NCBI GenBank assembly: GCA_041652815.1
Contig: JBAZGN010000001.1
Span: 317,855 to 381,854, forward strand
DNA: 64,000 nt
Reading direction: 5' to 3'
Source: Candidatus Omnitrophota bacterium
Lineage (GTDB): Bacteria > Omnitrophota > Gorgyraeia > Duberdicusellales > 4484-171
In this document: positions 31,772-57,248 of the stretch, piece by piece
Position numbering within the stretch: position 1 is the stretch's first letter
How the letters are laid out: the number at the start of each line of letters is the position of its first letter
Program-made: the position numbers and the translations under genes
Notes under the pieces: model-generated
Told to the model about the DNA's origin: nothing
What the model saw: only the letters and a program-made list of their open reading frames with translations
The model's database searches: none

Positions 31772-31892
31772 TTCTTCAAAAAACACTTGACTAAAAAACC
31801 TTTAATAGTAAAATTTTACTATTAAAATTTAACTAAAGCACCTCAGCTTTTAAGGAATGCCTAGTGTGCGCTTTCCGTGTAAGGAGGACCAT

Positions 31893-33416
31893 ATGAATGT
31901 AAAAGAATTACTTATAAACCAAGCTTCGTTATTTCCTCAAAAAAGCGCTTTTATCTTTGAAGGCAAAGAAACAACCTTTTTGCAACTCAAAGATGCCGCA
32001 TTTAAGATTGCCAATTATTTTACAAGGCAAGGCATAAAAAAGCCAGATAAAATTGCTATTTTTACCCCAAACACTCCGGAAGCTATTTGTGCGCAGATGG
32101 CGGCATATTCTATAGGTGCAACCTTGATACCTTTTGATTACATGCTCACAGAAAATGAGATTATTCATTTCTTAAACCATAGCGAAGCAAAAGTATTAAT
32201 CATGCAGCCGAGAAAAGACATAAACGTATTAAACATCCGGGAAAACTGTTATTCTGTAAAATATATAATAACCTGTAAAGAGCGCCTTGCGGATTGCGAT
32301 TTCCTTGATGATCTTTTGGCAGAGGAAAGTAGTGAAGCTCCGATTCCGCAATCTTTTGATAAAGACCTCGCGGCAATATTTTATACCTCAGGCTCAACTG
32401 GCCACCCTAAGGGCGTAATGCTTAGCTATAAACAGTTTGATAATCCGGTTGATACAATAAACCATTTTTTAGGGGTTTCGGAAAACGATGTTTATTGTAC
32501 CGGCGGCATACCTTTTTCCCATGTGGGCGGGCTTAATTACCTGCTTTTAATGATTCGTTTTGCATCAACCGTTATTGTAATGGGAAGGTTTCATCCGATG
32601 GAATTTTTAAAAAATATAGAAAGATATAAAGTCACGATATTTTGCATAGTGCCTTCGATGTATGTTGCGATTTTATCTCTAAAAGAATACGAGAGGTTTA
32701 ACCTTTCGTCTTTAAGGTATGCAGTTGTTTTTGGTGCGCCTTCTTCGCCTCTTTTGCTTAAGAAATTTCACAGGTCATGCCCTAAAGCAATTGTTTTAAA
32801 CGGTTGGGGTATGACTGAAACCGCCGCTCCGAATACTTTTTCGCCCCCGGACGAGCATAAGATATCCAGCATAGGGAAATTCGGATTTCGTATGCAGGCA
32901 AAGATAATCGATGAGGAAGGAAAATCTTTGTTATATGGAGAACAAGGCGAATTATTAGTCAGCGGAGAAGGTGTTACCGGCGGCTATTACAGAGAGCCGA
33001 CCTTAAGCTCAGATGCTTTTTGGGGAGAAGGGTGGCTGCGTACCGGCGATATTGCTTATTTTGGAAAAGACGGGCTGATATATCTTGCCGGGAGAAAAAA
33101 GGACATGATAAAAGTTGCCGGTGAGATAGTTTTTTCCTCGGAAGTTGAAGAAAAAATACAGCTCTATCCAAAGGTTAAAGAAGTTGCTGTCATAGGTGTT
33201 GCCGATGAATTAAGAGGAGAAGTGCCGAAAGCTTTTATTGTTGCAAAAGAATCTGAAGTGATAGATGCTCAGGAGCTAAGGGATTTTTTAAAAGAGCATC
33301 TGGCTCATTTTAAAATTCCGCATTATTTTGAATTTATAAAAGAACTTCCAAAAAATAGAGTGGGAAAAATCGACAAACAGGCACTTAAGAAAACACAGAT
33401 TAGCACAGATTTGTAA
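31893..33416 (+). CDS. AMP-dependent synthetase/ligase (acyl-CoA or aryl-CoA ligase)
   Basis: YTSGSTGHPKGV AMP-binding motif, C-terminal KIDKQALKK. SD AAGGAGG before ATG 31893. Confidence 0.85.
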   Translation: MNVKELLINQASLFPQKSAFIFEGKETTFLQLKDAAFKIANYFTRQGIKKPDKIAIFTPNTPEAICAQMAAYSIGATLIPFDYMLTENEIIHFLNHSEAKVLIMQPRKDINVLNIRENCYSVKYIITCKERLADCDFLDDLLAEESSEAPIPQSFDKDLAAIFYTSGSTGHPKGVMLSYKQFDNPVDTINHFLGVSENDVYCTGGIPFSHVGGLNYLLLMIRFASTVIVMGRFHPMEFLKNIERYKVTIFCIVPSMYVAILSLKEYERFNLSSLRYAVVFGAPSSPLLLKKFHRSCPKAIVLNGWGMTETAAPNTFSPPDEHKISSIGKFGFRMQAKIIDEEGKSLLYGEQGELLVSGEGVTGGYYREPTLSSDAFWGEGWLRTGDIAYFGKDGLIYLAGRKKDMIKVAGEIVFSSEVEEKIQLYPKVKEVAVIGVADELRGEVPKAFIVAKESEVIDAQELRDFLKEHLAHFKIPHYFEFIKELPKNRVGKIDKQALKKTQISTDL

Positions 33417-33652: not shown

Positions 33653-34381
33653 ATGATGCAAAGAGATGTGCACTTGCACGCAAAAGGATTACTTGAATCT
33701 TTACAATTCCGCCAGGGTGATTTTGGCGAAATCGGCATTATCAGCGGACAAATGCAGCGAGCCCAAAGATGCCTTCAGTATCTGGAAAATCCTGTAAAAA
33801 ATTTTACTTTTTTGGGTTACACTTTCTGGACAGGTATATATAAAGGAAAGAAAGTCACTGTAGGCAATGGCGGTTTCTATGCACCGGATTCAGCGTTTGT
33901 CACGGAAATTTTATGCGTGGGAGGGATTAAAACACTTATCCGGCTTGGCTCCTGTGGGGCAATGTTGCAGGAAATGACTGTTGGAGATTTTGTCGTGGTT
34001 GATAAAGTTATCAGAGGTGATGGAGCCACGCGCTATTACGTCGATGATAATTTTGTTCCGCAAGTGGACAAAGAATTATCCAAAAAGTTAGTAACAATTT
34101 TTGAAAAACAGGGCAAAGTTTATCAGGGTGCCTGCTGGACTACTGATGCAATGTTTAGAGAAACAAAGGAAATCGTAAATCCTTATATAGAAAAAGGCGC
34201 AATTTGTGTGGATATGGTAACCAGCCCGTTTGTTACTGTCGCTAATGTTTATAAAACAAAGGTTGCCGCTATCTTGGTAGTTTCGGATAATCTTTTAACC
34301 GGCGAAATGGGTTTTGCCGATTTTCGTTTGTTCGATGCAGAAGAAAAAATGACAAAAACGGTGTTTGAGATTATTGCCTAA
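33653..34381 (+). CDS. PNP/UDP family-1 nucleoside phosphorylase (candidate MTA / 5'-deoxyadenosine phosphorylase)
   Basis: IRLGSCGAM, TVGNGGFYAPDSA and an ICVDMVTS-like C-terminal motif, characteristic of DeoD/MTAP-type phosphorylases. Confidence 0.65.
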   Translation: MMQRDVHLHAKGLLESLQFRQGDFGEIGIISGQMQRAQRCLQYLENPVKNFTFLGYTFWTGIYKGKKVTVGNGGFYAPDSAFVTEILCVGGIKTLIRLGSCGAMLQEMTVGDFVVVDKVIRGDGATRYYVDDNFVPQVDKELSKKLVTIFEKQGKVYQGACWTTDAMFRETKEIVNPYIEKGAICVDMVTSPFVTVANVYKTKVAAILVVSDNLLTGEMGFADFRLFDAEEKMTKTVFEIIA

Positions 34382-43131: not shown

Positions 43132-43151
43132 TATAATTTAAGGAGGAGAGA

Positions 43152-44896: not shown

Positions 44897-44944
44897 TAAC
44901 TTTATTCCAAAGTAAAGGAACATTTTAAATAAGGAGGAAATGCG

Positions 44945-46402
44945 ATGAAGATACTGTTCGTCATGCCGAAAATCGGCGCTTGGGCAACCCATGGAAATCA
45001 TTTTGCACCTAACCAGTTATATGCCCAGTGGGGAGCATATATCCGTGAGAAAGGTTATGACAATCTTGAGGTTTTAGACGCAACTGTCTTGGGTATTCCC
45101 ATTGAACACTTGGCTGAGAAAGTTAAAGAAAAAAATCCTGACGTGGTTGTCTTGGGCGATATGATTCATTGCTCGGTAGGCTTTGGCATAATCTGGCATT
45201 TTAACCAGGCTGCCGCAAGAATAAAACAGGTTTTACCAAAAACGAAAATAATTATGGGCGGGCTTTGGTATTCAGCCTTACCCGTTCAGACCTTGGAGGA
45301 TAATCCCGCGATAGATTATGTGGTTATGGGCGAAGAAGAATCCTTTTATGACCTTATCGATGCAATCGATAAAAATAAAAATATGAAAGATGTTGCGGGG
45401 GTAACCAGCCGCATAGATGGTAAGCCGGTAATGGGCCCGCATAAGCCGCTATTGCAGGATTTGGATAAATTGCCGCTTCCGGCTTATGATTTATTTCCTA
45501 TGGATAAATACATAGGGCATACTTTCTGGAAACCGTTTGTTGAAATGATAACGTCCCGTGGCTGCCCCTCAGCTTGTACTTTCTGTTATGAATGGGACCA
45601 GTATGACCCGCGCAGCCCGCAGGATTTTTTAACCTGGCGCGCAAAATCACCGGAGCGCGTTATTGAAGAGCTCGAGCTTTTAAAGAAAATGGGCACAAAA
45701 GTTGTGGTTATACAGGATGATAATTTTAATGTTAATCCCGAGAGAGTTGAAAAATTTTGTAACTTAAAGAAACAAAAAAACAATCCGATTAAATGGGTTT
45801 CTTTAGGAAGAGCTGTTGACTGGATTAATTGCGAAAAAATTTTGCCTCTAATGAAAGAAACCGGATTATTTATGGGGGTATTTGGAATTGAAGTGACCAC
45901 GCCGGAAGAGCTTAAAAAAATCGCCAAAGGAATAACCATTGATCAGATTAAAAAAACAATCGATATTTTACGCGCCCAGAATATCGCAATTGTCGCTGAT
46001 ATTATGATGGGCTTTGATGACGATACGGAATATTCCATAAAGCAGAGATTTGAATTTACCGACGAAGTTGACCCGGATATTCTTTGGGTTGGTTACGTTA
46101 CCCCTGCTCCTAATTCACCTATCTGGAGGCAAAGGGTAAAACGCGGGGAAATAGACCTTAAAAAAATTGATTTTCTTAAGTGGGATTTTTTACACCCGGT
46201 TATGCCGACAAAGCATTTAACCTTGGAAGATTACGGAAGGCTTGGCGCCTGGTGTATGCGCGAATTTTTCTCAAAACCGGGGCGCATTCAGAGAATTATG
46301 ACCAGTAATTTCGACCCGCTGGCAAAACTCTGCTTCGAGGATGTTATGCGCGGAGTTTCAAAGTGGGAAGCAGGAGCGGTTAAGGGGGAAAAGCATATTT
46401 AA
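44945..46402 (+). CDS. Class B (cobalamin-binding) radical SAM enzyme
   Basis: N-terminal B12-binding-like domain. CPSACTFC is a CxxxCxxC motif. Confidence 0.8.
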   Translation: MKILFVMPKIGAWATHGNHFAPNQLYAQWGAYIREKGYDNLEVLDATVLGIPIEHLAEKVKEKNPDVVVLGDMIHCSVGFGIIWHFNQAAARIKQVLPKTKIIMGGLWYSALPVQTLEDNPAIDYVVMGEEESFYDLIDAIDKNKNMKDVAGVTSRIDGKPVMGPHKPLLQDLDKLPLPAYDLFPMDKYIGHTFWKPFVEMITSRGCPSACTFCYEWDQYDPRSPQDFLTWRAKSPERVIEELELLKKMGTKVVVIQDDNFNVNPERVEKFCNLKKQKNNPIKWVSLGRAVDWINCEKILPLMKETGLFMGVFGIEVTTPEELKKIAKGITIDQIKKTIDILRAQNIAIVADIMMGFDDDTEYSIKQRFEFTDEVDPDILWVGYVTPAPNSPIWRQRVKRGEIDLKKIDFLKWDFLHPVMPTKHLTLEDYGRLGAWCMREFFSKPGRIQRIMTSNFDPLAKLCFEDVMRGVSKWEAGAVKGEKHI

Positions 46403-46463
46403 GCTTTCAGTCGTCAGCCGTCAGCTTTCAGCTGATGACTGAAAGCTGATAGCTGATAGCTGT
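46402..46463. repeat. Compound palindrome, CAGCTGAAAGCTG family (B5)
   Basis: agctttcagtcgtcagccgtcagctttcagctgatgactgaaagctgatagctgatagctg. Confidence 0.85.
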
Positions 46464-46464
46464 T

Positions 46465-47343: not shown

Positions 47344-47360
47344 AGAAAAGAGGAGGTATT

Positions 47361-48176
47361 ATGAGCAATCCTGACAAAAACAAAAGAAGGGATATAGAAA
47401 AACCGGCAGTTCATACTACCATCGTTGGCGGCCGGCCACCAGGCTGCGGCAAAGAGATAGACAAAGTACCCAGGGGTATTGAAATTTTAGTTAAAAAAGC
47501 ATCTGTAGATCCTTCTTTTCGGGAAATTCTATTAAAGGAAAGAGCTGCTGCAGCAAAACATATAAACCTTTGTCTGGTAGAAAGCGAAGCAATTATTCTA
47601 AATACTATTTCAAAAGCTCAGCTAGAAGGAATGATTTTAGCAACGAAAGTGCATCCAAACTTAAAAGAGGTTTTTTTAGGCTGTACTGCCGCAGTGATGT
47701 TAGCGGCACTAACTACTACCGTAAATGCTTCAGATGATAGACGCGAAGTCGGAGGAATTAGGCCCGATGATGCTCCTGTTTCTTGCGATGAGAAGGAGAA
47801 CCCTTCATTTTTTAAGGCGGAAGAAGATAAACAGTTAGAAACAGGGATTTTGTTAGTAGAAGTTTTTGACCGCGCTACCAACAAGCCCGTAAAGGATGCA
47901 AAAATATATTTTCATAAACACAATGCAGGAGAAAAGCCACGCACGCCTACGTATGGAAAAGGGTATACTGACGAAAAGGGGCAATACATAATAAAAGAAA
48001 TACCCGTGGGAAGATTTTATATTCTCGTAAGTGATTGCAGTGGCAGAACGCCATACGAGAACACTTATCTAGACATTGCTGCCGGCAAGGAAAATAAAAT
48101 CACATTTAAAGTAAATAAAGATAATAACCCTCCATCATTATGGCACTACCAAACAAGAGGGATTAGTCCCAAATAA
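47361..48176 (+). CDS. Hypothetical protein with a C-terminal carboxypeptidase-regulatory-like (Ig-fold) domain
   Basis: GILLVEVFDRATNKPVKDAKIYF...TDEKGQYIIKEIPVGRFYILV. A hydrophobic central segment. SD AGAGGAGG. Confidence 0.45.
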   Translation: MSNPDKNKRRDIEKPAVHTTIVGGRPPGCGKEIDKVPRGIEILVKKASVDPSFREILLKERAAAAKHINLCLVESEAIILNTISKAQLEGMILATKVHPNLKEVFLGCTAAVMLAALTTTVNASDDRREVGGIRPDDAPVSCDEKENPSFFKAEEDKQLETGILLVEVFDRATNKPVKDAKIYFHKHNAGEKPRTPTYGKGYTDEKGQYIIKEIPVGRFYILVSDCSGRTPYENTYLDIAAGKENKITFKVNKDNNPPSLWHYQTRGISPK

Positions 48177-48186
48177 TATTAAGCCA

Positions 48187-49650
48187 ATGCGTGCAGACAT
48201 AACTTTGATTAATCTTAATATGCTTTTTATTCATTACGCCAATGGATTTGAAAAGGAACGTCATGTTCCGCTTGGCCCTTTATATCTTACTAGAGCGTTG
48301 GAGGATGCAGGCTTTGAAGTTGATTTTCGCGATTATCAAACTTGGTCCTGTAAAGACCCTTTTGATTTGAATGAATTTCTCGATTTCATGAAGGACCCTT
48401 CTCCTATTGTAGGATTTTCCTGCATGGCCAATTTATTGCCATTTACTATTCTGGCTACAAGGGCATTTAAACAGCGACATCCAAATTGTAAAATTATCTT
48501 AGGTGGCGTAGGGTCAAAATGCGTTGAAGAAAAAATACTAAAACGGTTTCCCTGGATAGAGTTAATCTGCCGCGGTGAAGGCGAAATAACCGGCCCTCAG
48601 CTTTTAAAAGCTCTAAAAACCGGGCAGAACCTGCGTGATATTAGGGGCATATCCTACCGGGAGGGTGAAGAAATTATCCATAATCTAGACCAGGAAAGGA
48701 TAACCAATCTTGACGTAATTCCTTTCCCGCAATTTAACAAAGTCAACCTTAAGGATTATGTCGGCTATGGTATGATGACCAGCCGCGGCTGCCCTTATCC
48801 TTGCACTTTTTGTTCTGTAGCGCCGATATGGAATTTGAATTATTATTCAAGAAGCCCCAAAAATATTGTTTCCGAAATGAAGCGCCTGCACCAAGAAGCA
48901 GGGATTGAAATATGCCTTTTTCAGGACGAATTTTTTGTTTCCGGCAAAAGACAAGTTATGGAATTCTGTAAAGAGTTTTCTGATTCAGGGCTTAAAATAC
49001 GATGGAAAGCTTTCGGCAGAATTAATCTTTGCGACACAGAAATGATGCAGGCTATGGCTGATACTGGCTGTGTTGAGCTTCGTTTTGGTATTGAATCGGG
49101 CTCTGACAATGTGCTTAAGCGCATAAAAAAAGGATTTACTACAAGCGAGGTTATGGAGATAATCCCCAAGGCTATTGAGATGTTTCCAAGAGTAGATACT
49201 TTCTATGTCTGGGGTTTTCCCTTCGAAAGCATGGAAGATTTTAATCAAACTCTTTTTCAGATGATTTCGTTTCGTTCAATGGGCGCCCGCATTCTCCCGA
49301 GCCTTCTTTCTCTATTGCCACAAACCGAAATTTATAAAGAGTGGGCGCCTCAGGCAAAGTTGGAACTTTGCCCTGATTTACTTCCGGAATTCGTGCTTAC
49401 TGGCCATGAGATTTGTAGCGGCATAGATATCTCTATACCCGAAAATTACAAAGATTATTTTAAACTTATTAAGGACAATCCGGATATATTCTCCGGTTTT
49501 TTTCTTATTGACACAAAAAACAATGTTTTACCTAAGCTTGAGCTTTTACGGCAATTCGGTTTCTATCCTTATTCCGAGAAACATAATAAAGATGAGCAGG
49601 CAGAAAGTTGCGGTGCGCATTCTCCTCATATAGCGCCTTCAAAAAAATGA
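48187..49650 (+). CDS. Second class B (cobalamin-binding) radical SAM enzyme
   Basis: The CPYPCTFC motif, with an N-terminal B12-binding-like domain. Confidence 0.8.
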   Translation: MRADITLINLNMLFIHYANGFEKERHVPLGPLYLTRALEDAGFEVDFRDYQTWSCKDPFDLNEFLDFMKDPSPIVGFSCMANLLPFTILATRAFKQRHPNCKIILGGVGSKCVEEKILKRFPWIELICRGEGEITGPQLLKALKTGQNLRDIRGISYREGEEIIHNLDQERITNLDVIPFPQFNKVNLKDYVGYGMMTSRGCPYPCTFCSVAPIWNLNYYSRSPKNIVSEMKRLHQEAGIEICLFQDEFFVSGKRQVMEFCKEFSDSGLKIRWKAFGRINLCDTEMMQAMADTGCVELRFGIESGSDNVLKRIKKGFTTSEVMEIIPKAIEMFPRVDTFYVWGFPFESMEDFNQTLFQMISFRSMGARILPSLLSLLPQTEIYKEWAPQAKLELCPDLLPEFVLTGHEICSGIDISIPENYKDYFKLIKDNPDIFSGFFLIDTKNNVLPKLELLRQFGFYPYSEKHNKDEQAESCGAHSPHIAPSKK

Positions 49651-50459
49651 TTATGAAAATATACCACAATGGAAAAATTGCTGATAAAGATACTTTAGAA
49701 GAAATTTTTGAACCGGGATTTCTTTTTGGTTGGGGTGTTTTTGAAACCTTACGCGCATATAATGGCAAAGTGCCATTTTTGGATTTACATATTGCCCGGT
49801 TAAATGATGCTCTTAATACATTAGGCATAGAAGAGCTCAAAACAGATTTCAAAGCTAAGATAAACGAACTTTTAAAGGTAAATAATTTAGAAGATGCCTA
49901 TATAAGAATTACTGCTTATAAAAAAAGAGAGTCTACTGGAGTGCTTATCTATGCAGATAAGTTCGGCTATTACCCTCAAAGCGCGTACGAAAAAGGATTT
50001 AGCGCCGTTATCTCTCCTTACCGGCGAAATATAAAAAATAACTTTTATACCATTAAATCATTGAGTTACCTTGAAAACAGGCTTTCCTGGTTTGAAGCGC
50101 AAAAGCAAAATAAAGATGAAGCTTTAGTTTTAAATGAAGATGGGTTTTTATCGGGTGGTTCCCGCAGCAATTTATTCATTGTAAAAGATCAGGACGTAAT
50201 TACTTCAAGCATTGAGAGCGGAGCATTTGACGGCATAACAAGAAAAATAGTAATTAGTGAGTTGAAAAAAATGAATATAAGCGTAAAAGAAGCACAAATT
50301 AGCATTGAAAATTTGTTTTCCTGTGCAAAAGAGGCATTCCTGACCAGCGCTTTACTGGAAGCAATGCCTTTGGTAGAATGTGGGGGCAAAAAGATAGGGG
50401 ATGGTAAACCCGGCAAGGTCACACTTAATGTTTTGGAGCAATACAGAAGCATCTTATAA
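49647..50459 (+). CDS. Class IV aminotransferase / aminodeoxychorismate-lyase family protein
   Basis: An ATGA overlap with the upstream radical SAM gene. Fold-type IV PLP motifs (RLNDAL, EAFLTSA). Confidence 0.7.
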   Translation: MIMKIYHNGKIADKDTLEEIFEPGFLFGWGVFETLRAYNGKVPFLDLHIARLNDALNTLGIEELKTDFKAKINELLKVNNLEDAYIRITAYKKRESTGVLIYADKFGYYPQSAYEKGFSAVISPYRRNIKNNFYTIKSLSYLENRLSWFEAQKQNKDEALVLNEDGFLSGGSRSNLFIVKDQDVITSSIESGAFDGITRKIVISELKKMNISVKEAQISIENLFSCAKEAFLTSALLEAMPLVECGGKKIGDGKPGKVTLNVLEQYRSIL

Positions 50460-50474
50460 GGCTAATCCAGGAAT

Positions 50475-50608
50475 TTAAATCACAAATTACAATGTACAAA
50501 TTACAAACAAATCACAATTCCGAAATCACAATAAACAAACATTTTTGTTATTTTGGAATTGTTTATTGTGTATTGTTTGTAATTTGTGGTTTGTGTATTG
50601 TAAATTAA
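50475..50608. repeat. Compound palindrome, CAAATCACAAT family (D2), complete
   Basis: aaatcacaaattacaatgtacaaattacaaacaaatcacaattccgaaatcacaataaacaaac...gtttattgtgtattgtttgtaatttgtggtttgtgtattgtaaatt. Confidence 0.85.
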
Positions 50609-50627
50609 TAATTTCATTCTAAATAGC

Positions 50628-51569
50628 ATGAAACTGTCACCATTATTCTGGCCGATTGAATTAAAAGGGAAAACTATTTATATCCTTGATGAAACCCTTC
50701 TGCCGCATAAAGTCAAATATATAAAGGCAAAAGATTATAAGCAGGCAGTCCGAGCGATAAAGGATATGAAAACCCGGGCAGTCGGACAGGTAATTCTTGT
50801 CTTTTATATTTTTCTTCTGGTTATAAGAAAGAATAAAAATAAGAAAGATATAAAACCAATTTTGTTTAAACTTGCCGAAATCATAAATGCTGCGCGGCCA
50901 ACCTTATCATTTAAATATCTAACCGATATGGTTTTGGGTTGGATGGTCTCTGGCGCGCCGCTTGAAGAAAGCATACTTGGATTTTTGGAAACACTTAAGA
51001 ATAAACGCATTCAGCAGGCGCGCGCGATGAGCGAATTACTGGCCGACGGCGATAGTATCTTGACGCATTGCAATATCAGCGGGCAGATGCCGGCAATTGG
51101 AGAATTCGCTCGCCAGCAAAAGAAGCATATAAGTTTTTTTGCGACGGAAACAAGGCCTTATCTGCAGGGCTCACGCTTAACCGCCTGGGAATTGCAAAAG
51201 CAAGGTTTTGACGTGACATTAATTTCGGATAATATGGTTGCGCAAATAATGCATGAGAAAAAAATAAATAAAGTAATTGTAGGAGCCGACCATTTAGCCC
51301 AAAACGGTGACATTGCCAATAAAGTTGGGACTTACCAGATTGCTATTTTGGCAAAACATTTTGGCATTCCTTTTTATGTTTTATGCCCGCCAGCTTCTCG
51401 CGCAAAAACCGGCAAGGATATTACAATTGAAATCAGGCCGCAAGTCGAATTACTCGAATATCAAGGGATTAAGCTTGCGCCGAAAGGTGTAAAAGGTTAT
51501 TATCCGGCGTTTGATGTAACACCGAATAATTTGATTACGGAACATATCTATTTGGATATTGAAAGATGA
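50628..51569 (+). CDS. eIF-2B alpha/beta/delta-family sugar-phosphate isomerase (MtnA-like 5-methylthioribose-1-P / 5-deoxyribose-1-P isomerase)
   Basis: IVGADHLAQNGDIANKVGTYQIAILAKHFGIPFYVLCP and N-terminal LDETLLP. Confidence 0.7.
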   Translation: MKLSPLFWPIELKGKTIYILDETLLPHKVKYIKAKDYKQAVRAIKDMKTRAVGQVILVFYIFLLVIRKNKNKKDIKPILFKLAEIINAARPTLSFKYLTDMVLGWMVSGAPLEESILGFLETLKNKRIQQARAMSELLADGDSILTHCNISGQMPAIGEFARQQKKHISFFATETRPYLQGSRLTAWELQKQGFDVTLISDNMVAQIMHEKKINKVIVGADHLAQNGDIANKVGTYQIAILAKHFGIPFYVLCPPASRAKTGKDITIEIRPQVELLEYQGIKLAPKGVKGYYPAFDVTPNNLITEHIYLDIER

Positions 51570-52567
51570 TATTCACAAAAGAAAAGACGCTCAAAGCCGA
51601 GATAATCAATATAGGTAAGAAACTATATGAATTACGCCTTGTAGTCGCACGTTCAGGGAATTTAAGCACCAGAATAGAGGGGAATAATATTTTAGTTACA
51701 GCCAGCGGCGCAAGCCTTGGCAGCTTAACCTATGAAGATATAATAAAAGTGGACCTCGACAATGACAAGGAGATTAAAAACCCTTGCTTAACCAGCGAAT
51801 TCCCTTTACACCGCCTGGTCTATAAAAATTTCTCAAATAAAATAATTATTCATTGCCATCCGACGCTGGTTAACGCTTACTTCGCGATTTATTCCGACCT
51901 TAAGGCGTTAACTTTTGAAACCAAACTTTATCTGGGTAATATCCCTGTGGTCGAGCAGGAGACCCCTGCAATTACTAAACCGGAATTAGTAATTAATGCC
52001 TTAAAAATTAACAATCTCGTTGTAGTAAAGAACCACGGTGTAGTAGCTATTGCAGATAAGTTTAGCGACGCTTTATATTTAATCGAATCCTTAGAGGAAG
52101 CAGTAAAGTTAGCCGCGACCGCGCGTTTATTTAAAAAAGAAATTCTTGATGGTTTGGATAAAGAATTGAAGGAAGATTTAACCCATGACAAGGCATATTT
52201 AATGTTTTCAGAAGAGCATATTCGCGCAATCGTGGAATTGGTGAACAAAGATGAATTTATCACAACCAAAGGCAAGGAATTAGATTTAACTCTACAGTAT
52301 GCCATAAAGCTTAACGGCACAGACAAGGTTTATAAATTTAATTTCGAAAAAGGAAAAATTACTAAATTAGAATTTGATGGTAATGCCCCTTTTGTAGCTT
52401 CGGCTTCCACGGATATCTGGCAATCGATTTTTTTAGGAAAGCTTGACCCCTTTGTAGCGGTCACCCAAGGCAAAATGAAGCTCGAGGGGCAGTTAGGCCA
52501 GCTTGCCCGCTGGTATGTTCCGTTTAGCAGGCTGTTTCAGATATTTAAGCAAGTAAAAATTAAATAA
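51566..52567 (+). CDS. Class II aldolase/adducin-domain protein (MtnB / Ald2-like) fused to a C-terminal SCP2 sterol-carrier-like domain
   Basis: ARSGNLSTRIEG ... IIIHCHPTLVNAY (aldolase II). The C-terminus GKMKLEGQLGQLARW is SCP2-like. ATGA overlap with the upstream gene. Confidence 0.65.
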   Translation: MIFTKEKTLKAEIINIGKKLYELRLVVARSGNLSTRIEGNNILVTASGASLGSLTYEDIIKVDLDNDKEIKNPCLTSEFPLHRLVYKNFSNKIIIHCHPTLVNAYFAIYSDLKALTFETKLYLGNIPVVEQETPAITKPELVINALKINNLVVVKNHGVVAIADKFSDALYLIESLEEAVKLAATARLFKKEILDGLDKELKEDLTHDKAYLMFSEEHIRAIVELVNKDEFITTKGKELDLTLQYAIKLNGTDKVYKFNFEKGKITKLEFDGNAPFVASASTDIWQSIFLGKLDPFVAVTQGKMKLEGQLGQLARWYVPFSRLFQIFKQVKIK

Positions 52568-52586
52568 TTTTTAATTGGAGGTGCGT

Positions 52587-53372
52587 ATGGATTGGGGAAT
52601 GAAAAACCGATTAAATCAGCTTATTCCTAATGGCCGCTGTTTCTTTTTACCTATCGACCACGGATATTTTCAGGGCCCAACCAGTTGTTTGGAAAAGCCC
52701 GGCGAAACCATAAAGCCCATACTTTCTTATTGCGACGCTCTTTTTGTAACCAGAGGGGTCTTGCGCGCAGCAGTGGATGCGGCTAATACCAAGCCGATTA
52801 TATTAAGAGTTTCCGGCGGCACAAGTATGGTAGGTAAAGATTTAGCTAATGAAGGAATTACTACTTCCGTAGAAGAGATTATTCGCCTTAATGCCTCTGC
52901 CGTAGGTGTTTCTGTTTTTATAGGAAGTGATTATGAGCACCAAACATTAATGAATCTCACAAAACTTGTTAACGAATGTGAGAATTATGGAATTCCGGTA
53001 ATGGCTGTTACTGCCGTTGGTAAAGAATTAGAAAAACGCGACGCGCGATACCTTGGTTTGGCTTGCCGTATTGCTGCGGAGCTCGGCGCACGCATCGTTA
53101 AAACTTATTGGTGCGAGAATTTTGATAAAGTCGTATGCGGCTGTCCGGTTCCTGTGGTTATTGCCGGAGGGCCTAAATGCGAAACCGAAAAAGAAGTATT
53201 TGAATTTGTGTATGATGGAATTCAAAAAGGAGCTATCGGTATAAATTTAGGCAGGAATGTCTGGCAGTGTGCCCAGCCGCAAGCAATGGCAGCGGCACTA
53301 CGGGCCATAATCCATGAAAATTGTAACGTAAAGAAAGCGCAAGAGATATTTAACGAGGTTAAAAAGAAGTAG
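52587..53372 (+). CDS. DeoC/LacD-family class I aldolase (DhnA-type)
   Basis: FFLPIDHGYFQGP N-terminus with a Schiff-base Lys context RIVKTYW. SD GGAGGTG before ATG 52587. Confidence 0.65.
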   Translation: MDWGMKNRLNQLIPNGRCFFLPIDHGYFQGPTSCLEKPGETIKPILSYCDALFVTRGVLRAAVDAANTKPIILRVSGGTSMVGKDLANEGITTSVEEIIRLNASAVGVSVFIGSDYEHQTLMNLTKLVNECENYGIPVMAVTAVGKELEKRDARYLGLACRIAAELGARIVKTYWCENFDKVVCGCPVPVVIAGGPKCETEKEVFEFVYDGIQKGAIGINLGRNVWQCAQPQAMAAALRAIIHENCNVKKAQEIFNEVKKK

Positions 53373-53489
53373 AGAATAGAGAGGCAATTAATTTCTATAA
53401 ATTTCAATGGCAATCGAAATTGGTATAAATTAAGGAATTAGTAGAAATTGATTGTGTAATGAATCTCTCCACCTAATAAATATAAAATA

Positions 53490-54518
53490 ATGAAAGTTGC
53501 AATGTATTATAACAACCGGGACGTGCGGATAGAAGAATTGCCAAAGCCAAAAATTGGCGCGGGAGAATTATTGGTAAAGGTGATTGCAAGCGGCATCTGC
53601 GGCAGCGATTGCTTAGAGTGGTACAGGGTAAAAAAAGCGCCACTTGTTTTAGGCCATGAAATAGCCGGTGAAATAGCCGAGGTTGGCAAAGATGTAGATA
53701 AGTATAAAGTTGGCGACAGGGTTTTTGTTTCGCATCACGTTCCCTGTAATACCTGCCGTTATTGTTTAAGCGGCAATCATACTGTATGCGAAACTCTGCA
53801 TACCACAAATTTCTCCCCCGGTGGTTTTTCCGAATACATTCGCGTGCCCCAGATAAATGTCGACAGAGGGGTTTTTCTCTTACCTAAAGAATTATCTTTT
53901 GAAGAGGCCACTTTCATTGAGCCTTTAGCTTGTTGTTTACGCGGCCAAAGAATGATAAATCTACAACCCGGCCAAACTCTACTTATTCTAGGTGCCGGCA
54001 TTTCCGGATTACTGCATCTTTTAGCGGCCCGCAGCCAGGGAGTATCTCGTATAGTAGTTACCGATATAAATGAATATAGGCTGAAATTAGCAAAGGAATT
54101 AGGGGCAACCAGCGCAATTGATGCGCGAAATGATTTGGTTGAGTGCCTTAAGCAGGCAAACGATAACCGGCTCGCAGACGTTGTTATGGTAGCTACTGGC
54201 GCGGATTCGGCATTTAAACAGGCACTTAAGTGTGTTGACCGCGCAGGAACAATACTTTTCTTTGCCACCACAACACCTGATGTAACTATCCCGATTCCGG
54301 TAAATGAATTCTGGCGCCAGAGTATAAAAATAATGCATTCTTACGGAGCAGCCCCCTTAGATCTAGCTATGGCAATAGATATGCTCCGCGCTAAACTTAT
54401 TCCAGTAAGCAAGTTGATTACCCATCGCCTGGCCATTGCCGATGCTGCCTTAGGTTTTAAATTGGTAGCTGAAGCAAAGGAATGTATCAAGGTTATTCTT
54501 AAGCCGCACATAAATTAG
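53490..54518 (+). CDS. Zinc-dependent medium-chain alcohol dehydrogenase
   Basis: GICGSDCLEWYR, GHEIAGEI, and a structural-Zn Cys cluster CNTCRYCLSGNHTVC. Confidence 0.85.
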   Translation: MKVAMYYNNRDVRIEELPKPKIGAGELLVKVIASGICGSDCLEWYRVKKAPLVLGHEIAGEIAEVGKDVDKYKVGDRVFVSHHVPCNTCRYCLSGNHTVCETLHTTNFSPGGFSEYIRVPQINVDRGVFLLPKELSFEEATFIEPLACCLRGQRMINLQPGQTLLILGAGISGLLHLLAARSQGVSRIVVTDINEYRLKLAKELGATSAIDARNDLVECLKQANDNRLADVVMVATGADSAFKQALKCVDRAGTILFFATTTPDVTIPIPVNEFWRQSIKIMHSYGAAPLDLAMAIDMLRAKLIPVSKLITHRLAIADAALGFKLVAEAKECIKVILKPHIN

Positions 54519-56009
54519 ATGAATACGAATTTATACATCAACGGTGAATTCAAAGAAACTCCAAATAAGCAGGATGTAATTAATCCTTCAACCGGCGAAG
54601 TTATTGCTAAGGTGAGCATTGCGGAAAATGCGGAAGTTGAATATGCTATAAAATCCGCACGCAATTCAATTGATTACGGCTTATGGGGAAAGCTTAGTCT
54701 AGATGAACGCAAAAATTTTATTCTTAAAATATCGCAGGGAATCCTTGACCACGCCGCTGAATTAGCCAGCCTCGAAAGTTTAAATACCGGAAAACCTATC
54801 AAAGAAACAACCTTTATGGATATTCCTTCCAGCGCCGCTGCTTTTGAATATTTTGCAAATAATTTAGAGAAATATCTGGTAAAAGAAAGCATTGAAATAA
54901 ATTCATCTATTGCTAAGGCGCAGGGCAATCTTATACGTGAGCCCCAAGGCGTGGTTGTTTTGATTGTCCCCTGGAATTACCCGCTTCTAATAGCTTCTTG
55001 GAAAATGGCTCAGGCGCTGGCTGCGGGAAATGCTGTAATTCTAAAACCGTCAAGCTTAACGCCGCTTACGGCACTAATACTTGCAAAAATTGTAAATGAT
55101 GCGGGGCTACCCGCCGGTGCAGTAAATATTCTAAATGCCGATGGAGATACGGTTGGCAAGACTCTTTGTTCGGATAAGCGTGTGGATATGGTTTCTTTTA
55201 CAGGCTCAAATGCTGTAGGCAAGAAAATTATGGAATACGCATCTTCAAACGTAAAAAAACTGATTATGGAGCTTGGAGGAAAATCAGCAGGCATAGTTTT
55301 TAAAGATGCTGATTTGGAGTCGGCGGTAAACGGTTGCCTTTGCTCCATATTTTTAAATCAAGGTCAGATGTGTACGGCGATGTCGCGGATTTTTGTCCAA
55401 GATGAAATTTACGATAATTTTATAAATAATTTTTCCGCAAAAGCCGCGCGCATAAAACTGGGTAAGCCGGAAGATTTCGAAACCCAGATGGGCCCTTTAA
55501 TGTCCAGGCCACAACTGGAAAAAGTAATTTCTTATGTACAAAAAGCAAAAGCCCAAGGAGCAAAAATTGTCTGCGGAGGAAAAGCTCCTGATGGTGCGAG
55601 TCTAAAACAGGGATTCTTCTTTGAGCCGACAGTGCTTACGCAAGTTTTGCCATCAATGGCTATTTTCAGAGAAGAAGTTTTTGGGCCGGTAGTTTGCATC
55701 ACCAAATTTTCTGCCATAGAGGAAGTTATAAAACTTGCAAATGCTTCAGATTTTGCTTTAGCGGCATCCATATGGACAAAAGATAGCACAAAGGCGCAGC
55801 ATCTCGCGGCACAAATCAATGCCGGCACCGTATGGATTAATACCTATGGAATGTTTTTTAATGAGCTACCTTACGGCGGATTTAAGCAAAGCGGCTTTGG
55901 AAAAGAACTTGGGAAAGAGGGGTTTCTGGAATACACTAGGCTTAAGAATGTAATTACAGATAAAACTCAAGATTCAAAACCGTTGGTTAATTATTGGTAT
56001 GGCTTTTGA
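54519..56009 (+). CDS. NAD(P)+-dependent aldehyde dehydrogenase
   Basis: LELGGKSA, catalytic Cys in QGQMCTA, GFGKELGKEG. Confidence 0.85.
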   Translation: MNTNLYINGEFKETPNKQDVINPSTGEVIAKVSIAENAEVEYAIKSARNSIDYGLWGKLSLDERKNFILKISQGILDHAAELASLESLNTGKPIKETTFMDIPSSAAAFEYFANNLEKYLVKESIEINSSIAKAQGNLIREPQGVVVLIVPWNYPLLIASWKMAQALAAGNAVILKPSSLTPLTALILAKIVNDAGLPAGAVNILNADGDTVGKTLCSDKRVDMVSFTGSNAVGKKIMEYASSNVKKLIMELGGKSAGIVFKDADLESAVNGCLCSIFLNQGQMCTAMSRIFVQDEIYDNFINNFSAKAARIKLGKPEDFETQMGPLMSRPQLEKVISYVQKAKAQGAKIVCGGKAPDGASLKQGFFFEPTVLTQVLPSMAIFREEVFGPVVCITKFSAIEEVIKLANASDFALAASIWTKDSTKAQHLAAQINAGTVWINTYGMFFNELPYGGFKQSGFGKELGKEGFLEYTRLKNVITDKTQDSKPLVNYWYGF

Positions 56010-56010
56010 G

Positions 56011-56140
56011 ACGCGAATATTCGCGAATTCAAAACCTTGATAGTTTCTTAAGGTATAAACGCGAATCCACGCGAATGGGAAACAAAAGCGGATAAAACTA
56101 TTCGCGACCATTAGCGTTAGATTCGCGAAAATTAGCGTTT
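56011..56140. repeat. Compound palindrome, CGCGAATA family (I2)
   Basis: gacgcgaatattcgcgaattc...aaacgcgaatccacgcgaatggg...attcgcgaccattagcgttagattcgcgaaaattagcg. Confidence 0.85.
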
Positions 56141-56144
56141 AAAT

Positions 56145-57248
56145 ATGAGCGAGCATAAATACCGCGAAGCCGAAAGCCGCGATTATTTTTATAAAATCAT
56201 TAACTCAATACCTGACCCTATTTTCGTAAAAGATAGAGCTCATCGCTGGGTATTGCTTAATGAAGCGCACGCCCAGATGATTGGGATACCTACCGAGGAA
56301 ATGCTTGGTAAAACCGACCATGATTATTTTCCAAAAGAAGAGGCTGATATATTTTGGGCGAAAGACGAAGTTGTTTTTGAAACCGGCACCGAGAACGTAA
56401 ATGAAGAATTATGGACCGACTCTAAAGGGGTTGTACATACGATAGTTACTAAAAAAAATTTATACATAGACGATAAAGGCAATAAATTTATTGTCGGTGT
56501 TATCCGCGATATAACCGATTTAAAAAATACGCAGGAAAAACTAAAAGAAGCAAAGGACATCCAGTCGCGTTTTACTGCGGTTGTTTCGCATGAGCTGCGC
56601 ACCCCCCTTGCCGCAATCCGTACAGGCGTAAATATAATCTTAGACGGCCTCTCCGGGCCGATTAATTATGAGCAGAGGGATTTTCTCGAGATAGTCAAAA
56701 AAAATATTGAACGGCTTTCCCGCTTAATCAACGATGTTTTGGATTTTCAGAAGCTGGATTCAGGTAAGATGCATTTTGATATTAAACCTAATGATATAAA
56801 CGAAGTAATCGAAGAGGTCTATAAAGCAATGCATCATTTGGTAGAGAAGAAATATTTGAAATTTGTATTAAACTTGGATAAAAAAATACCGCACTTTTTA
56901 TTCGACAGGGATAGATTTATACAGGTAGTAACCAATCTAGTCAATAACGCCATAGCTTTTACCGACAAAGGTTCAATTGCTATTACAAGTAAATTGGAAG
57001 ATAAATTTGTGCATGTGGCAATTAAGGATACAGGTGTTGGCATAAGCGAGGAAAGCCTGCCTAGGCTATTTAATCCTTTTGAGCAGGCAGAGCGCCAGGA
57101 CAGCGGGAAAAGACAGGGTACGGGCCTTGGGCTTGCAATCTGCAAGGAAATAATTTTAAAGCATAAAGGAAAAATTTGGGCAGAGTCTAAGAGCGAGGAA
57201 GGCTCGATTTTTCATTTCTTAATGCCGATGGAGATGGAAAATGAGTAA
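56145..57248 (+). CDS. Cytoplasmic PAS-domain sensor histidine kinase
   Basis: PAS region, HisKA VVSHELRTPLAAI, HATPase_c (GTGLGLAICKEI). No TM segment. Confidence 0.85.
   Translation: MSEHKYREAESRDYFYKIINSIPDPIFVKDRAHRWVLLNEAHAQMIGIPTEEMLGKTDHDYFPKEEADIFWAKDEVVFETGTENVNEELWTDSKGVVHTIVTKKNLYIDDKGNKFIVGVIRDITDLKNTQEKLKEAKDIQSRFTAVVSHELRTPLAAIRTGVNIILDGLSGPINYEQRDFLEIVKKNIERLSRLINDVLDFQKLDSGKMHFDIKPNDINEVIEEVYKAMHHLVEKKYLKFVLNLDKKIPHFLFDRDRFIQVVTNLVNNAIAFTDKGSIAITSKLEDKFVHVAIKDTGVGISEESLPRLFNPFEQAERQDSGKRQGTGLGLAICKEIILKHKGKIWAESKSEEGSIFHFLMPMEMENE

Follow-up and report, generated by a model that had tools for sequence, protein, structure and literature searches.

The window analysed here is a 64,000-nucleotide stretch of a Candidatus Omnitrophota genome. 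It carries five ORFs head to tail on the plus strand (Table 1), which belong, in gene order, to the Pfam families IF-2B, Aldolase_II plus SCP2, DeoC, ADH_N/ADH_zinc_N, and Aldedh. The gaps between them (−4, 7, 117, and 0 bp) are operon-like; the first reflects a 4 bp overlap of the isomerase stop with the aldolase start. An earlier note had described these five genes as a salvage cluster right after radical SAM genes, and the ORF and Pfam check found them to be real, with two genes for B12-binding radical SAM enzymes just 5′. The arrangement is not due to chance. Among GTDB species representatives, from which the synteny counts were taken, the isomerase gene lies directly 5′ of the fusion gene in all 14 loci with a readable upstream side, and all 17 fusion loci contain an aldehyde dehydrogenase (ALDH) gene. 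The gap between an aminotransferase gene and the isomerase gene contains a hairpin with a related copy at 29745–29900, possibly an operon boundary or a regulatory element.

Table 1 Features of the salvage locus and its surroundings (positions in the window)
Feature	Position	Strand	Evidence
AMP-forming acyl-CoA ligase	31857..33416	+	PF00501, PF13193
Nucleoside phosphorylase, hexameric DeoD/Udp-like family	33653..34381	+	PF01048 (PNP_UDP_1), 121 bits
B12-binding radical SAM enzyme	44945..46402	+	PF02310, PF04055
Second B12-binding radical SAM enzyme	48187..49650	+	PF02310, PF04055
Long imperfect hairpin	50460..50627	+	MFE −44.6 kcal/mol, z-score −5.1 vs shuffles
MtnA-like sugar-1-phosphate isomerase, 313 aa	50628..51569	+	PF01008, 186 bits
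Class II (metal-dependent) aldolase + SCP2 fusion	51566..52567	+	PF00596, 113.6 bits; PF02036, 22.6 bits
LsrF-family CoA-dependent thiolase	52575..53372	+	NF006081, 362 bits (cut-off 297)
Zn-dependent medium-chain dehydrogenase, threonine/polyol/butanediol dehydrogenase type	53490..54518	+	PF08240, PF00107
Non-acylating NAD(P)-dependent aldehyde dehydrogenase	54519..56009	+	PF00171, 562 bits

The isomerase passes TIGR00524 (214 bits, cut-off 186) and reaches 241 bits with TIGR00512 (MtnA), which is under the cut-off of 279. Its best solved relatives are the MtnA structures 1T9K, 1T5O, and 2YVK. As MtnA models score 241–254 bits and the ribose-1,5-bisphosphate isomerase model only 117 bits, the enzyme is MtnA-like, as had been claimed, and the latter identity was rejected. 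No RuBisCO motif is present in the window, so the alternative of such an isomerase acting with RuBisCO does not refute the reading. The proposed substrate of the MtnA-like enzyme is 5-deoxyribose-1-P or 5-methylthioribose-1-P, which it would turn into the ribulose-1-P form.

In the fusion protein, the aldolase covers residues 1 to about 195 and SCP2 residues about 209–333. The SCP2 match in Pfam is marginal (cut-off 21.3 bits). The AlphaFold model of residues 204–333 (pLDDT 90.8) fits solved SCP2 proteins, including 2CX7/1WFR (TM about 0.8, E 2e-8), with alkylsulfatases, MFE-2, and UbiJ also among the matches, and this model confirms the predicted SCP2 fold of the C-terminus. In the full-length model (pLDDT 80), the linker 196–208 is disordered. 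The claimed fusion of a class II aldolase to an SCP2-like domain is thus upheld by Pfam for both domains and by the model for the SCP2 fold. A lipid-binding SCP2 domain has no obvious use with small polar substrates.

N32, S77, E78, H96, H98, and H157 of the fusion align with N29, S72, E73, H92, H94, and H155 of E. coli FucA, and all but S77 are invariant across distant fusions. By this alignment, the class II aldolase retains the FucA metal ligands (Zn) and the catalytic Glu acid/base. The domain is no nearer to DrdA (PDB 6BTD, 27.9 bits) than to FucA. A fuculose-1-P aldolase of a fucose operon was considered as well and does not refute the reading, as no fucose genes are found in the window. 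The fusion is proposed to cleave 5-deoxy- or 5-methylthio-ribulose-1-P to DHAP and an aldehyde.

The fusion had been called unprecedented, but an architecture search found more than 120 clusters at 90% identity, all with the 333-aa architecture. About 25 further clusters at 50% identity (318–342 aa) have the domain in the equivalent place at the C-terminus, with identities as low as 25%. Aldolase_II was present in all five of these remoter clusters that were checked, one of the loci being labelled as a Syntrophaceae MAG. The aldolase–SCP2 fusion is a conserved, uncharacterised family, and we know of no characterised example of this domain combination.

The third gene had been read as a DhnA-type class I aldolase. 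This identity is not supported, as the protein passes the LsrF thiolase model NF006081 and shares 45% identity with E. coli LsrF and 52% with the Bacillus LsrF of an lsrR-K-G-F operon. Against MJ0400 and class I FBA, it scores 142 and 92 bits, respectively. The likely true start is 52599; the 257-aa form is that of the NCBI annotation. K168 of this form aligns with the Lys mutated in PDB 4P2V (K203A), and the Schiff-base Lys is kept. 3GKF and 4P2V are LsrF structures. Marques et al. in 2014 reportedly identified LsrF as the 3-hydroxy-2,4-pentanedione-5-phosphate thiolase of the AI-2 (lsr) system, and this compound is the established LsrF substrate. The Omnitrophota protein is likewise proposed to convert 3-hydroxy-2,4-pentanedione-5-P and CoA to acetyl-CoA and DHAP. 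In an NJ tree without support values, the Bacillus lsr-operon LsrF nests among dehydrogenase-linked LsrFs. Genes of the family also occur in other sugar contexts (DhaK/DhaL; FGGY kinase).

The top NCBIfam match of the Zn-dehydrogenase is Tdh (198 bits, under the cut-off of 380). Its best solved relatives are L-threonine 3-dehydrogenase, sorbitol dehydrogenase, and (R,R)-butanediol dehydrogenase, which act oxidatively on secondary CH3-CHOH groups or on polyols. In metagenomes, 51 of 80 loci, from both bacteria and archaea, have a homologue of its gene next to lsrF; three of the 51 are assigned to archaea because they carry TFIIB, and no other recurrent neighbour of the pair was found in the metagenomic loci. 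In Omnitrophota, the two genes are gained or lost jointly (both in seven loci, neither in eight). They keep their order where ALDH moves, remain joined when separated from the isomerase, and sit inside the salvage operon at two different positions.

The family assignment of the claimed Zn alcohol dehydrogenase is correct, but the role of aldehyde reducer is less likely, since the gene pairs with lsrF. As the dehydrogenase is bound to the thiolase in a two-gene module, oxidation of a sugar phosphate is likelier than reduction of an aldehyde. The enzyme is probably not an aldehyde reductase, and we infer that it oxidises C4 of 5-deoxyribulose-1-phosphate. In a plain DHAP shunt, the class II aldolase would cleave the ketose, the Zn-dehydrogenase would reduce or ALDH oxidise the aldehyde according to redox state, and the DeoC-family protein would just be a further aldolase, of class I, that acts on this ketose-1-phosphate or on a related one. 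The known shunt indeed ends in an alcohol dehydrogenase activity (PMC10986504, PMC6302742), the Zn-dependent family includes aldehyde reductases, and most of the DeoC/DhnA superfamily are aldolases. We nevertheless consider this reading unlikely because of the LsrF assignment given above, the oxidative chemistry of the closest solved dehydrogenases, and the behaviour of the dehydrogenase gene, which tracks lsrF and not the aldolase or ALDH gene, is lost with it, and pairs with it far from any aldolase.

Most of the pairs adjoin no isomerase and may therefore act on a different substrate. The pair might be unrelated to the isomerase and act on another pentose-derived phosphate, namely phospho-AI-2 (P-DPD), given the established part of LsrF in the breakdown of AI-2 (PMC7828210), or 1-deoxy-xylulose-5-P. 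Oxidation of the latter at C4 should be formally equivalent and would give the substrate of LsrF as well; together with Dxs and triose-phosphate isomerase, a pyruvate-to-acetyl-CoA bypass would result, and a dxs gene lies at 61664, 6 kb 3′ of the cluster. Both variants appear very improbable. In the window, lsrK, lsrG, and an lsr transporter were not found. The pair also occurs on the TFIIB-carrying contigs, whereas archaea, to our knowledge, lack the MEP pathway. Besides its insertion into the Omnitrophota operon, the pair's thiolase is tied to methylthioribose genes in two unrelated loci, L084 (MtnA paralogue, aldolase/SDR, LsrF, MtnK, MtnA) and L097 (MtnA, a 166-aa protein, LsrF, and further on Zn-ADH), in which MtnK and MtnA exceed the curated cut-offs. 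These loci support a link of LsrF to MTR/5-deoxyribose genes.

The aldehyde dehydrogenase claimed for the cluster is present; every NCBIfam equivalog stays under its cut-off, and its PDB relatives are generic ALDH1/2- or BADH-like enzymes. It is proposed to oxidise the aldehyde freed by the aldolase. More speculatively, the acyl-CoA ligase (422 bits with NF004837, a long-chain-fatty-acid–CoA ligase subfamily, under the cut-off of 476) might activate the resulting acid; its homologues are neighbours of the cluster in L006, L010, L024, L026, L030, L033, and L041.

The radical SAM enzyme encoded at 44945 scores 199 bits with BchE and 146 bits with HpnJ, and the one at 48187 scores 172 bits with ApyD and 152 bits with BchE, all under the cut-offs. 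5′-Deoxyadenosine is a by-product of radical SAM enzymes, and the former enzyme, whose gene co-travels with the salvage genes, is presumed to be its local source. The linkage of the salvage genes to the B12-radical-SAM block outlasts permutations of gene order.

In relatives, a phosphorylase gene lies directly 5′ of the isomerase gene. The order phosphorylase–isomerase–fusion occurs in 11 of 14 GTDB loci, two distant loci, L026 and L027, share it, and the core of phosphorylase, isomerase, and aldolase is kept around the fusion in Omnitrophota and two distant lineages. In the window, the only gene of this kind is that at 33653, which had been counted as part of the pathway. The PNP_UDP_1 gene exists, but it lies 17 kb from the cluster and its product, a candidate entry enzyme, is only 44% identical to the isomerase-adjacent phosphorylases. 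DeoD (89.5 bits) and uridine phosphorylase (69.6 bits) models outscore MTAP (20 bits), all under cut-offs, and an MtnP-like identity was rejected; the family is DeoD/Udp-like, and the substrate cannot be read from the sequence.

This family would also suit a scavenger in which ordinary nucleosides are degraded via ribulose-1-P to DHAP and glycolaldehyde, which ALDH would oxidise to glycolate, a bacterial counterpart to how the non-carboxylating pentose bisphosphate pathway of haloarchaea ends. The aldolase weakly matches the haloarchaeal ribulose-1-P aldolase model (56.8 bits), and methionine-salvage enzymes are promiscuous on ribose derivatives (PMC6302742). Such ribose-1-phosphate catabolism is quite improbable, as the closest family of the isomerase is MtnA, the known acetyl transfer by LsrF needs a 5-deoxy (methyl) substrate, independent LsrF loci contain bona fide MtnK and MtnA, and the lasting radical SAM linkage suits 5′-deoxyadenosine better.

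The SCP2 domain raises another alternative, in which the neighbouring radical SAM and fatty-acid-like genes would produce a lipid-linked adenosine that the operon trims. The processing of adenosylhopane by HpnH and HpnG is the model for this. Once phosphorolysis and isomerisation had taken place, the aldolase would cut DHAP from an SCP2-held 5-alkyl-ribulose-1-P, ALDH would oxidise the lipid aldehyde, and the acyl-CoA ligase would activate the product. In solved enzymes (alkylsulfatases, MFE-2, UbiJ), the SCP2 fold, which the model predicts here, goes with hydrophobic substrates. The fusion co-travels with FabF-like synthases, ACP, SDR, B12-radical SAM enzymes, and a fatty-acyl-CoA-ligase-like gene, and the most distant fusions adjoin ApbA or an AMP-binding ligase without phosphorylase or isomerase. 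However, the radical SAM enzymes are of class B (B12-binding), BchE/HpnJ-like, with HpnH and MqnE models absent from their matches, and Udp/DeoD models outscore HpnG on the phosphorylase. Furthermore, genes for radical SAM enzymes, ketosynthase, and ACP are missing from the vicinity of the trio in L027, where only a lipid A acyltransferase gene lies upstream, and we know of no adenosylated lipid in the phylum Omnitrophota. We regard this alternative as highly unlikely.

Taken from gene content, family assignments, catalytic residues, and synteny, our preferred reading (probability roughly 0.58) is that the operon salvages the ribose part of 5′-deoxyadenosine, and probably of 5′-methylthioadenosine, by a variant of the DHAP shunt/5-deoxyribose disposal with two exits. 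The DHAP-shunt reading of the earlier note stands for its core of phosphorylase, MtnA-like isomerase, and class II aldolase, a layout that matches published clusters (PMC6079011, PMC10986504), but not for the class I aldolase, the aldehyde-reducing Zn-ADH, or the unprecedented fusion. The phosphorylase, here putatively the diverged copy at 33653, would remove the base to give 5-deoxyribose-1-P or 5-methylthioribose-1-P, which the isomerase would turn into the 5-substituted ribulose-1-P. At the first exit, found in all relatives, the aldolase–SCP2 protein would release DHAP and acetaldehyde or 2-methylthioacetaldehyde, and ALDH would convert the aldehyde to the acid. The second exit would be the accessory module present here. 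The threonine-dehydrogenase-like Zn enzyme would oxidise the C4 hydroxyl, beside the methyl group, of 5-deoxyribulose-1-P. The predicted product, CH3-CO-CHOH-CO-CH2OP, is 3-hydroxy-2,4-pentanedione-5-phosphate, from which the LsrF-type thiolase would move the acetyl group to CoA, giving acetyl-CoA and DHAP. A free aldehyde would be avoided and a thioester conserved. Two exits from one intermediate appear redundant, which speaks against this reading.

Among the closest known systems is the DHAP shunt of Rhodospirillum rubrum, Rhodopseudomonas palustris, and extraintestinal E. coli (MtnP or MtnN+MtnK, MtnA, Ald2), which likewise leads from a 5′-deoxynucleoside via sugar-1-P and ribulose-1-P to DHAP and an aldehyde. 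It has MtnP in place of a DeoD/Udp-like phosphorylase; the Omnitrophota aldolase carries SCP2 and shows no particular similarity to Ald2 or DrdA, and the operon includes ALDH and the LsrF/dehydrogenase module. DrdK-DrdI-DrdA of Bacillus thuringiensis is also a paralogous cluster dedicated to salvaging the radical SAM by-product, with DHAP and acetaldehyde as products, but the Omnitrophota cluster has no kinase, its aldolase is remote from DrdA, and the CoA-dependent branch proposed here is missing from Drd. Phosphorylase-type variants of 5-deoxyribose disposal have been reported (Beaudoin et al. 2018, PMC6079011). With LsrF of the lsr system, the Omnitrophota protein shares the identity, model pass, and Schiff-base Lys given above as well as the proposed substrate and products. 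It differs in lacking the E. coli-type N-terminal extension of roughly 30 residues and in the absence of LsrK, LsrG, LsrR, and the Lsr transporter here, and its substrate would come from 5-deoxyribulose-1-P through NAD-dependent oxidation instead of from phospho-AI-2 through isomerisation. Tdh-Kbl (L-threonine 3-dehydrogenase and 2-amino-3-ketobutyrate CoA ligase) offers a parallel for the chemistry, as a Zn-dependent MDR enzyme, the top-scoring though distant relative of the Omnitrophota dehydrogenase, turns CH3-CHOH into a methyl ketone and CoA-dependent C–C cleavage then frees acetyl-CoA. Kbl, however, is a PLP enzyme and not a Schiff-base (DeoC-fold) thiolase, and the proposed Omnitrophota substrate is a sugar phosphate. 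SCP2-domain enzymes (SCPx thiolase-SCP2, MFE-2, the alkylsulfatases SdsA1/Pisa1, UbiJ) also carry a C-terminal SCP2 fold on a catalytic domain, but the partner here is a class II aldolase, and a hydrophobic substrate is not evident in the salvage reading.

Most likely, the operon turns the sugar part of the waste nucleosides of radical SAM and polyamine metabolism into the glycolytic intermediate DHAP. It would do so by the known aldolase route and probably also by an undescribed route through the dehydrogenase and LsrF-type thiolase; if true, the latter would be a new branch of a known pathway, in which acetyl-CoA is made directly.

The five-gene cluster is best described as a variant of the DHAP shunt with a built-in aldehyde oxidation step. 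Its sequences suggest a probable new oxidative-thiolytic exit, formed by a Zn-dependent dehydrogenase (Zn-ADH) and an LsrF homologue. The DHAP-shunt reading of the earlier note was right in outline and went wrong in three details, namely the novelty of the aldolase-SCP2 fusion, the identity of the class I aldolase, and the role of the Zn-ADH.

The five ORFs lie in 50628-56009 with operon-like gaps (-4, 7, 117, and 0 bp), and the gene set claimed for this region is real. The aldolase-SCP2 protein has a 100% identical counterpart in a Candidatus Omnitrophica MAG, which identifies the source of the window. The radical SAM genes said to precede it were also found, as two genes for B12-binding enzymes. 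The same-strand block 31857-50459 further contains DUF2621, an ApbA-TIGR04076 fusion, two FabF-like ketosynthases, a cyclase, an MFS transporter, a FabG-like SDR, an amidohydrolase (Amidohydro_2), and a class IV aminotransferase. In Omnitrophota the block is kept with its genes permuted, and it resembles a lipid or polyketide pathway of an uncharacterised kind. The operon is followed by a PAS histidine kinase, two response regulators, and then housekeeping genes.

Genes of the proposed salvage operon and selected upstream genes in the window
Feature	Position	Length	Strand	Remark
Acyl-CoA ligase	31857		same as operon	upstream of operon
PNP_UDP_1 phosphorylase	33653-34381		same as operon	upstream of operon
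B12-binding radical SAM enzymes (two)	44945, 48187		same as operon	upstream of operon; BchE/HpnJ-like, under every model cut-off
Isomerase, IF-2B/MtnA family	50628-51569	313 aa	+
Class II aldolase with C-terminal SCP2 domain	51566-52567	333 aa	+
DeoC-fold protein (LsrF homologue)	52575-53372	265 aa	+	NCBI annotation 257 aa, start 52599
Zn-dependent medium-chain dehydrogenase (Zn-ADH)	53490-54518	342 aa	+
Aldehyde dehydrogenase (ALDH)	54519-56009	496 aa	+

The 168-bp gap between the aminotransferase and isomerase genes (50460-50627) holds a strong hairpin (z = -5.1), of which a related copy lies at 29745-29900. Long AT-rich imperfect hairpins of short repeated words occupy these two intergenic regions as well as 33440-33585 and 56010-56145. 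ATCTGTG words stand directly 5' of two ribosome-binding sites, one belonging to the phosphorylase gene (33590-33640) and the other to the ORF at 29520, and CGCGAAT words lie 3' of the ALDH gene. A promoter and terminator scan of 49.5-56.4 kb gave counts no higher than the shuffle expectation and was uninformative. The aminotransferase ORF (49608-50459) is listed with a TTG start and shares 43 nt with the 3' end of the radical SAM gene. Hence, the true start may be further downstream.

LsrF homologue: The protein had been taken for a DhnA-type class I aldolase. Instead, it passes the model for 3-hydroxy-5-phosphonooxypentane-2,4-dione thiolase (NF006081, 362 bits vs a cut-off of 297), while the next-best model, ADH synthase, gives 201 bits and is under its cut-off of 241. 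Its identity is 45% to E. coli LsrF and 52% to the Bacillus LsrF of an lsrR-lsrK-lsrG-lsrF operon. The Schiff-base lysine (E. coli K203; K203A in PDB 4P2V) aligns with the K of ARIVKTYW and is invariant in our alignment A3. By its sequence, the protein is thus assigned to the LsrF thiolase family. According to Marques et al. 2014, as cited in PMC7828210, LsrF moves the acetyl group of 3-hydroxy-2,4-pentanedione-5-P onto CoA and so forms acetyl-CoA and DHAP; the E. coli K-12 annotation agrees with this reaction.

An Lsr system for AI-2 processing was rejected because the window has no lsrK or lsrG. Searches (tblastn) with Bacillus LsrK, LsrG, and LsrR gave nothing in the window, and the neighbours of the LsrF homologue are the aldolase and the Zn-ADH instead of lsr genes. 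A neighbour-joining tree without support values places the LsrF of the Bacillus lsr operon within the ADH-linked group and those of the E. coli and Lacticaseibacillus lsr operons in its sister group. Members from lsr contexts thus bracket the ADH-linked clade, which argues for a shared chemistry.

Zn-ADH: The closest relatives are threonine 3-dehydrogenase, butanediol dehydrogenase, and polyol dehydrogenases, which oxidise secondary alcohols of the kind considered here. The substrate of the proposed exit would be 5-deoxyribulose-1-P (CH3-CHOH-CHOH-CO-CH2OP). We infer that the Zn-ADH would oxidise the hydroxyl beside the methyl group to yield CH3-CO-CHOH-CO-CH2OP, which is 3-hydroxy-2,4-pentanedione-5-P, the known substrate of LsrF. 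By analogy, the pair would mirror the two steps of Tdh-Kbl. In our literature search, no paper was found that links LsrF with 5-deoxyribulose or radical SAM.

In Omnitrophota, LsrF and Zn-ADH are both present in seven loci and both absent in eight. The order LsrF then ADH is constant, whether the ALDH stands before or after the pair. In two loci (L024 and L025), the two genes overlap by 4 bp and are far from any isomerase. As a homology search with LsrF gave only relatives of at least 81% identity, plasmid records and a metagenome scan with the LsrF alignment were used for more distant contexts. From the scan, the best 80 of more than 580 loci (50-83% identity) were considered, a sample therefore biased to relatives of the query. 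A Zn-ADH homologue directly adjoins LsrF on the same strand in 51 of these best 80 metagenomic loci and is nearby in two more. Only seven of the 80 have both flanks readable and no Zn-ADH, one being a canonical Bacillus lsr operon. In three of the seven, a class II aldolase-SDR fusion is found instead; a fourth locus, of which one side alone is readable, has this fusion too. The best 80 loci show no other gene family that recurs beside the pair. These unrelated surroundings indicate a widespread, undescribed two-gene module. Hence, the Zn-ADH is probably not an aldehyde reductase.

Most LsrF-ADH pairs have no isomerase next to them. Oxidation of 1-deoxyxylulose-5-P (DXP) at C4 would give the same diketone. 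As a general substrate of the pair, DXP is weakened by the archaeal pairs; three LsrF-ADH contigs (L091, L094, and L096) are archaeal, as they carry TFIIB. The link of LsrF to the 5-deoxyribulose-1-P pathway is supported by two independent loci. In L084, the order is MtnA paralogue, bifunctional class II aldolase/SDR, LsrF, MtnK (396 bits vs a cut-off of 275), MtnA (396 vs 279), and split transketolase. In L097, MtnA (406 bits vs 279) is followed by a 166-aa ORF, LsrF, and, further on, a Zn-ADH 61% identical to that of the window.

The L084 cluster (109-9148), on a GC-rich contig, is a different build of an MTR/5-deoxyribose cluster containing LsrF. In two Bacteroidota plasmid records (L019, 5128-7798; L020, 5198-7780), an LsrF-family gene stands 3' of DhaK-DhaL kinase subunit genes. 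In the alpha-proteobacteria Shinella and Sagittula, an LsrF-family gene occurs with genes for an FGGY kinase, a glycerol-3-P dehydrogenase-like protein, and a class II aldolase(-SDR). Both kinds of LsrF neighbourhood are uncharacterised. The extra C-terminal part of the 397-aa class II aldolase beside LsrF in Sagittula is not SCP2-like. Three related loci (L085, L086, and L090) have BioA-like and BioF-like aminotransferase genes just 5' of the LsrF-dehydrogenase pair. Biotin synthase is a radical SAM enzyme, and this neighbourhood may or may not be a coincidence.

Isomerase: The protein is above the subfamily model TIGR00524 (214 bits vs a cut-off of 186) and under both the MtnA equivalog TIGR00512 (241 vs 279) and PRK05720 (254 vs 271). 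The closest solved structures in a PDB search are MtnA proteins. The model TIGR00511 for ribose-1,5-bisphosphate (R15P) isomerases gives 117 bits (cut-off 314) against 241-254 bits for the MtnA models, and a six-frame scan of the window shows no RuBisCO active-site motif. A nucleoside pathway with R15P isomerase and RuBisCO, which the earlier note had named as a counter-case, was rejected on these grounds. The sequence appears MtnA-like rather than R15P-isomerase-like, a comparison that does not tell MtnA and DrdI types apart.

Phosphorylase: The single phosphorylase of the window is of the DeoD/Udp-like kind, with 20 bits on the MTAP model TIGR01694; a search of the window for MtnK was negative. 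Relatives have phosphorylases of this family directly 5' of the isomerase. The window copy is 44% identical to these, which share 61-85% among themselves. Its family and this low identity make the entry step the weakest link. The window copy is a candidate for the entry enzyme.

Synteny was followed in 17 loci from GTDB species representatives carrying the fusion. The isomerase is immediately 5' of the fusion in all 14 loci with a readable upstream side, and an ALDH is present in 17 of 17; against PDB, the window ALDH has generic relatives only. The phosphorylase (PNP_UDP_1) is directly 5' of the isomerase in 11 loci. The class IV aminotransferase gene of the window stands where most relatives have the phosphorylase, and two of the GTDB loci show the same arrangement. 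Two distant lineages (L026 and L027) also have the PNP-isomerase-fusion order. L026 has, in addition, an ALDH and a B12-radical-SAM/ApbA/KS-KS-ACP/cyclase block in different order, and L027 is without a block of the B12-radical-SAM/ketosynthase type. Both carry a small extra IF-2B-like ORF of 141-172 aa between the isomerase and aldolase-SCP2 genes (L026, 9583-10008; L027, 9361-9879), which has no equivalent in the window. The phosphorylase-isomerase-class II aldolase order of the fusion loci is that of the published 5-deoxyribose/MTA salvage clusters (PMC6079011, PMC10986504). Unlike the MtnP of the DHAP shunt, the phosphorylases around the fusion are DeoD/Udp-like.

The salvage genes travel with the radical SAM/ketosynthase/ACP/SDR/acyl-CoA-ligase block through several gene-order permutations (window, L006, L008-L015, L026, and L030). 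Read simply, this linkage would serve to remove, on the spot, the 5'-deoxyadenosine that radical SAM chemistry releases at high flux.

Aldolase-SCP2 fusion: The aldolase start overlaps the isomerase stop. Aligned to FucA of E. coli K-12, the aldolase domain has equivalents of the phosphate-binding N29, the catalytic E73, and the metal-binding H92, H94, and H155, which are invariant down to the most distant fusions. In NCBIfam, it scores 115 bits on the "aldolase" model PRK08660, 88 on archaeal FucA, 56 on MtnB, and 31 on E. coli-type FucA, and every equivalog is below its cut-off. Its similarity to DrdA is no better than to FucA, with no DrdA-specific resemblance. The domain thus looks competent as a class II aldolase and forms a subfamily of its own; it is predicted to turn 5-deoxyribulose-1-P or MTRu-1-P into DHAP and an aldehyde.

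A fuculose-1-P aldolase in a fucose operon, the other counter-case of the earlier note, was rejected (TIGR01086, 31 bits vs a cut-off of 400), and no fucI/fucK/fucP-type genes are among the ORFs examined in 31.8-64 kb. An MtnB dehydratase was rejected as well (TIGR03328, 56 bits vs 137), the FucA-type Glu being present. MtnB-type enzymes are not known to have a Glu at the FucA E73 position (APIP structure).

The SCP2 match in Pfam is marginal (PF02036, 22.6 bits vs 21.3). As Foldseek with the full-length model gave aldolases only, residues 204-333 were modelled alone (pLDDT 90.8), and the top ~40 PDB matches were all SCP2 proteins or domains. The structure model thus confirms the SCP2 alpha/beta fold, and the SCP2-like domain claimed for the aldolase is real. 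Within the family, it is as conserved as the aldolase domain. The fusion is, however, not unprecedented as had been claimed, since the 333-aa architecture occurs in over 120 clusters made at 90% identity. When the SCP2 part by itself was used in an exhaustive HMMER search, it gave 84 representative clusters; about 25 of them have lengths of 318-342 aa and the domain at the same place, with identity down to 25%. One of these about 25 distant clusters carries a Syntrophaceae MAG label. The most distant fusions adjoin ApbA or an AMP-binding ligase in place of phosphorylase and isomerase. One JGI record is already annotated as aldolase/"putative sterol carrier", and we know of no characterised member. 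Separately, a giant repeat protein of 5745 aa (P0245) has 32 stretches that match SCP2 query residues 53-94, which is unexplained.

It is odd that an enzyme acting on small polar substrates should carry an SCP2 domain, and this leaves room, at low probability, for a lipid-linked substrate. The domain would then mark a hydrophobic substrate, and the radical SAM and fatty-acid-like genes would make a lipid bearing a 5'-deoxyadenosyl group. Phosphorylase, isomerase, and aldolase(SCP2) would remove adenine and DHAP, leaving the lipid longer by a two-carbon aldehyde. Either ALDH and acyl-CoA ligase or dehydrogenase and LsrF would convert this lipid aldehyde to an acyl-CoA. We regard this full scheme as very improbable. 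HpnH/HpnG-like adenosyl-lipid processing is without model support and was retained as a low-probability case only. If true, the scheme would reveal a new route by which SAM-derived carbon is used to build or tailor lipids.

Disposal of 5'-deoxyadenosine is needed in every cell using radical SAM enzymes. Gene clusters known to do this are by no means universal (PMC6079011). If the preferred reading, a DHAP-shunt variant with the dehydrogenase-LsrF exit, is true, this exit would be a second route out of 5-deoxyribulose-1-P, which bypasses free acetaldehyde and keeps the thioester as acetyl-CoA. It would also give a function to many "AI-2 aldolase / LsrF" genes of bacteria and archaea without an AI-2 uptake system, as the module appears widespread (adjacent genes in 51 of the best 80 metagenomic loci, archaeal contigs included). 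In Omnitrophota, the conserved aldolase-SCP2 fusion and its lasting linkage to the B12-radical-SAM/ketosynthase block point to an uncharacterised lipid-related chemistry.
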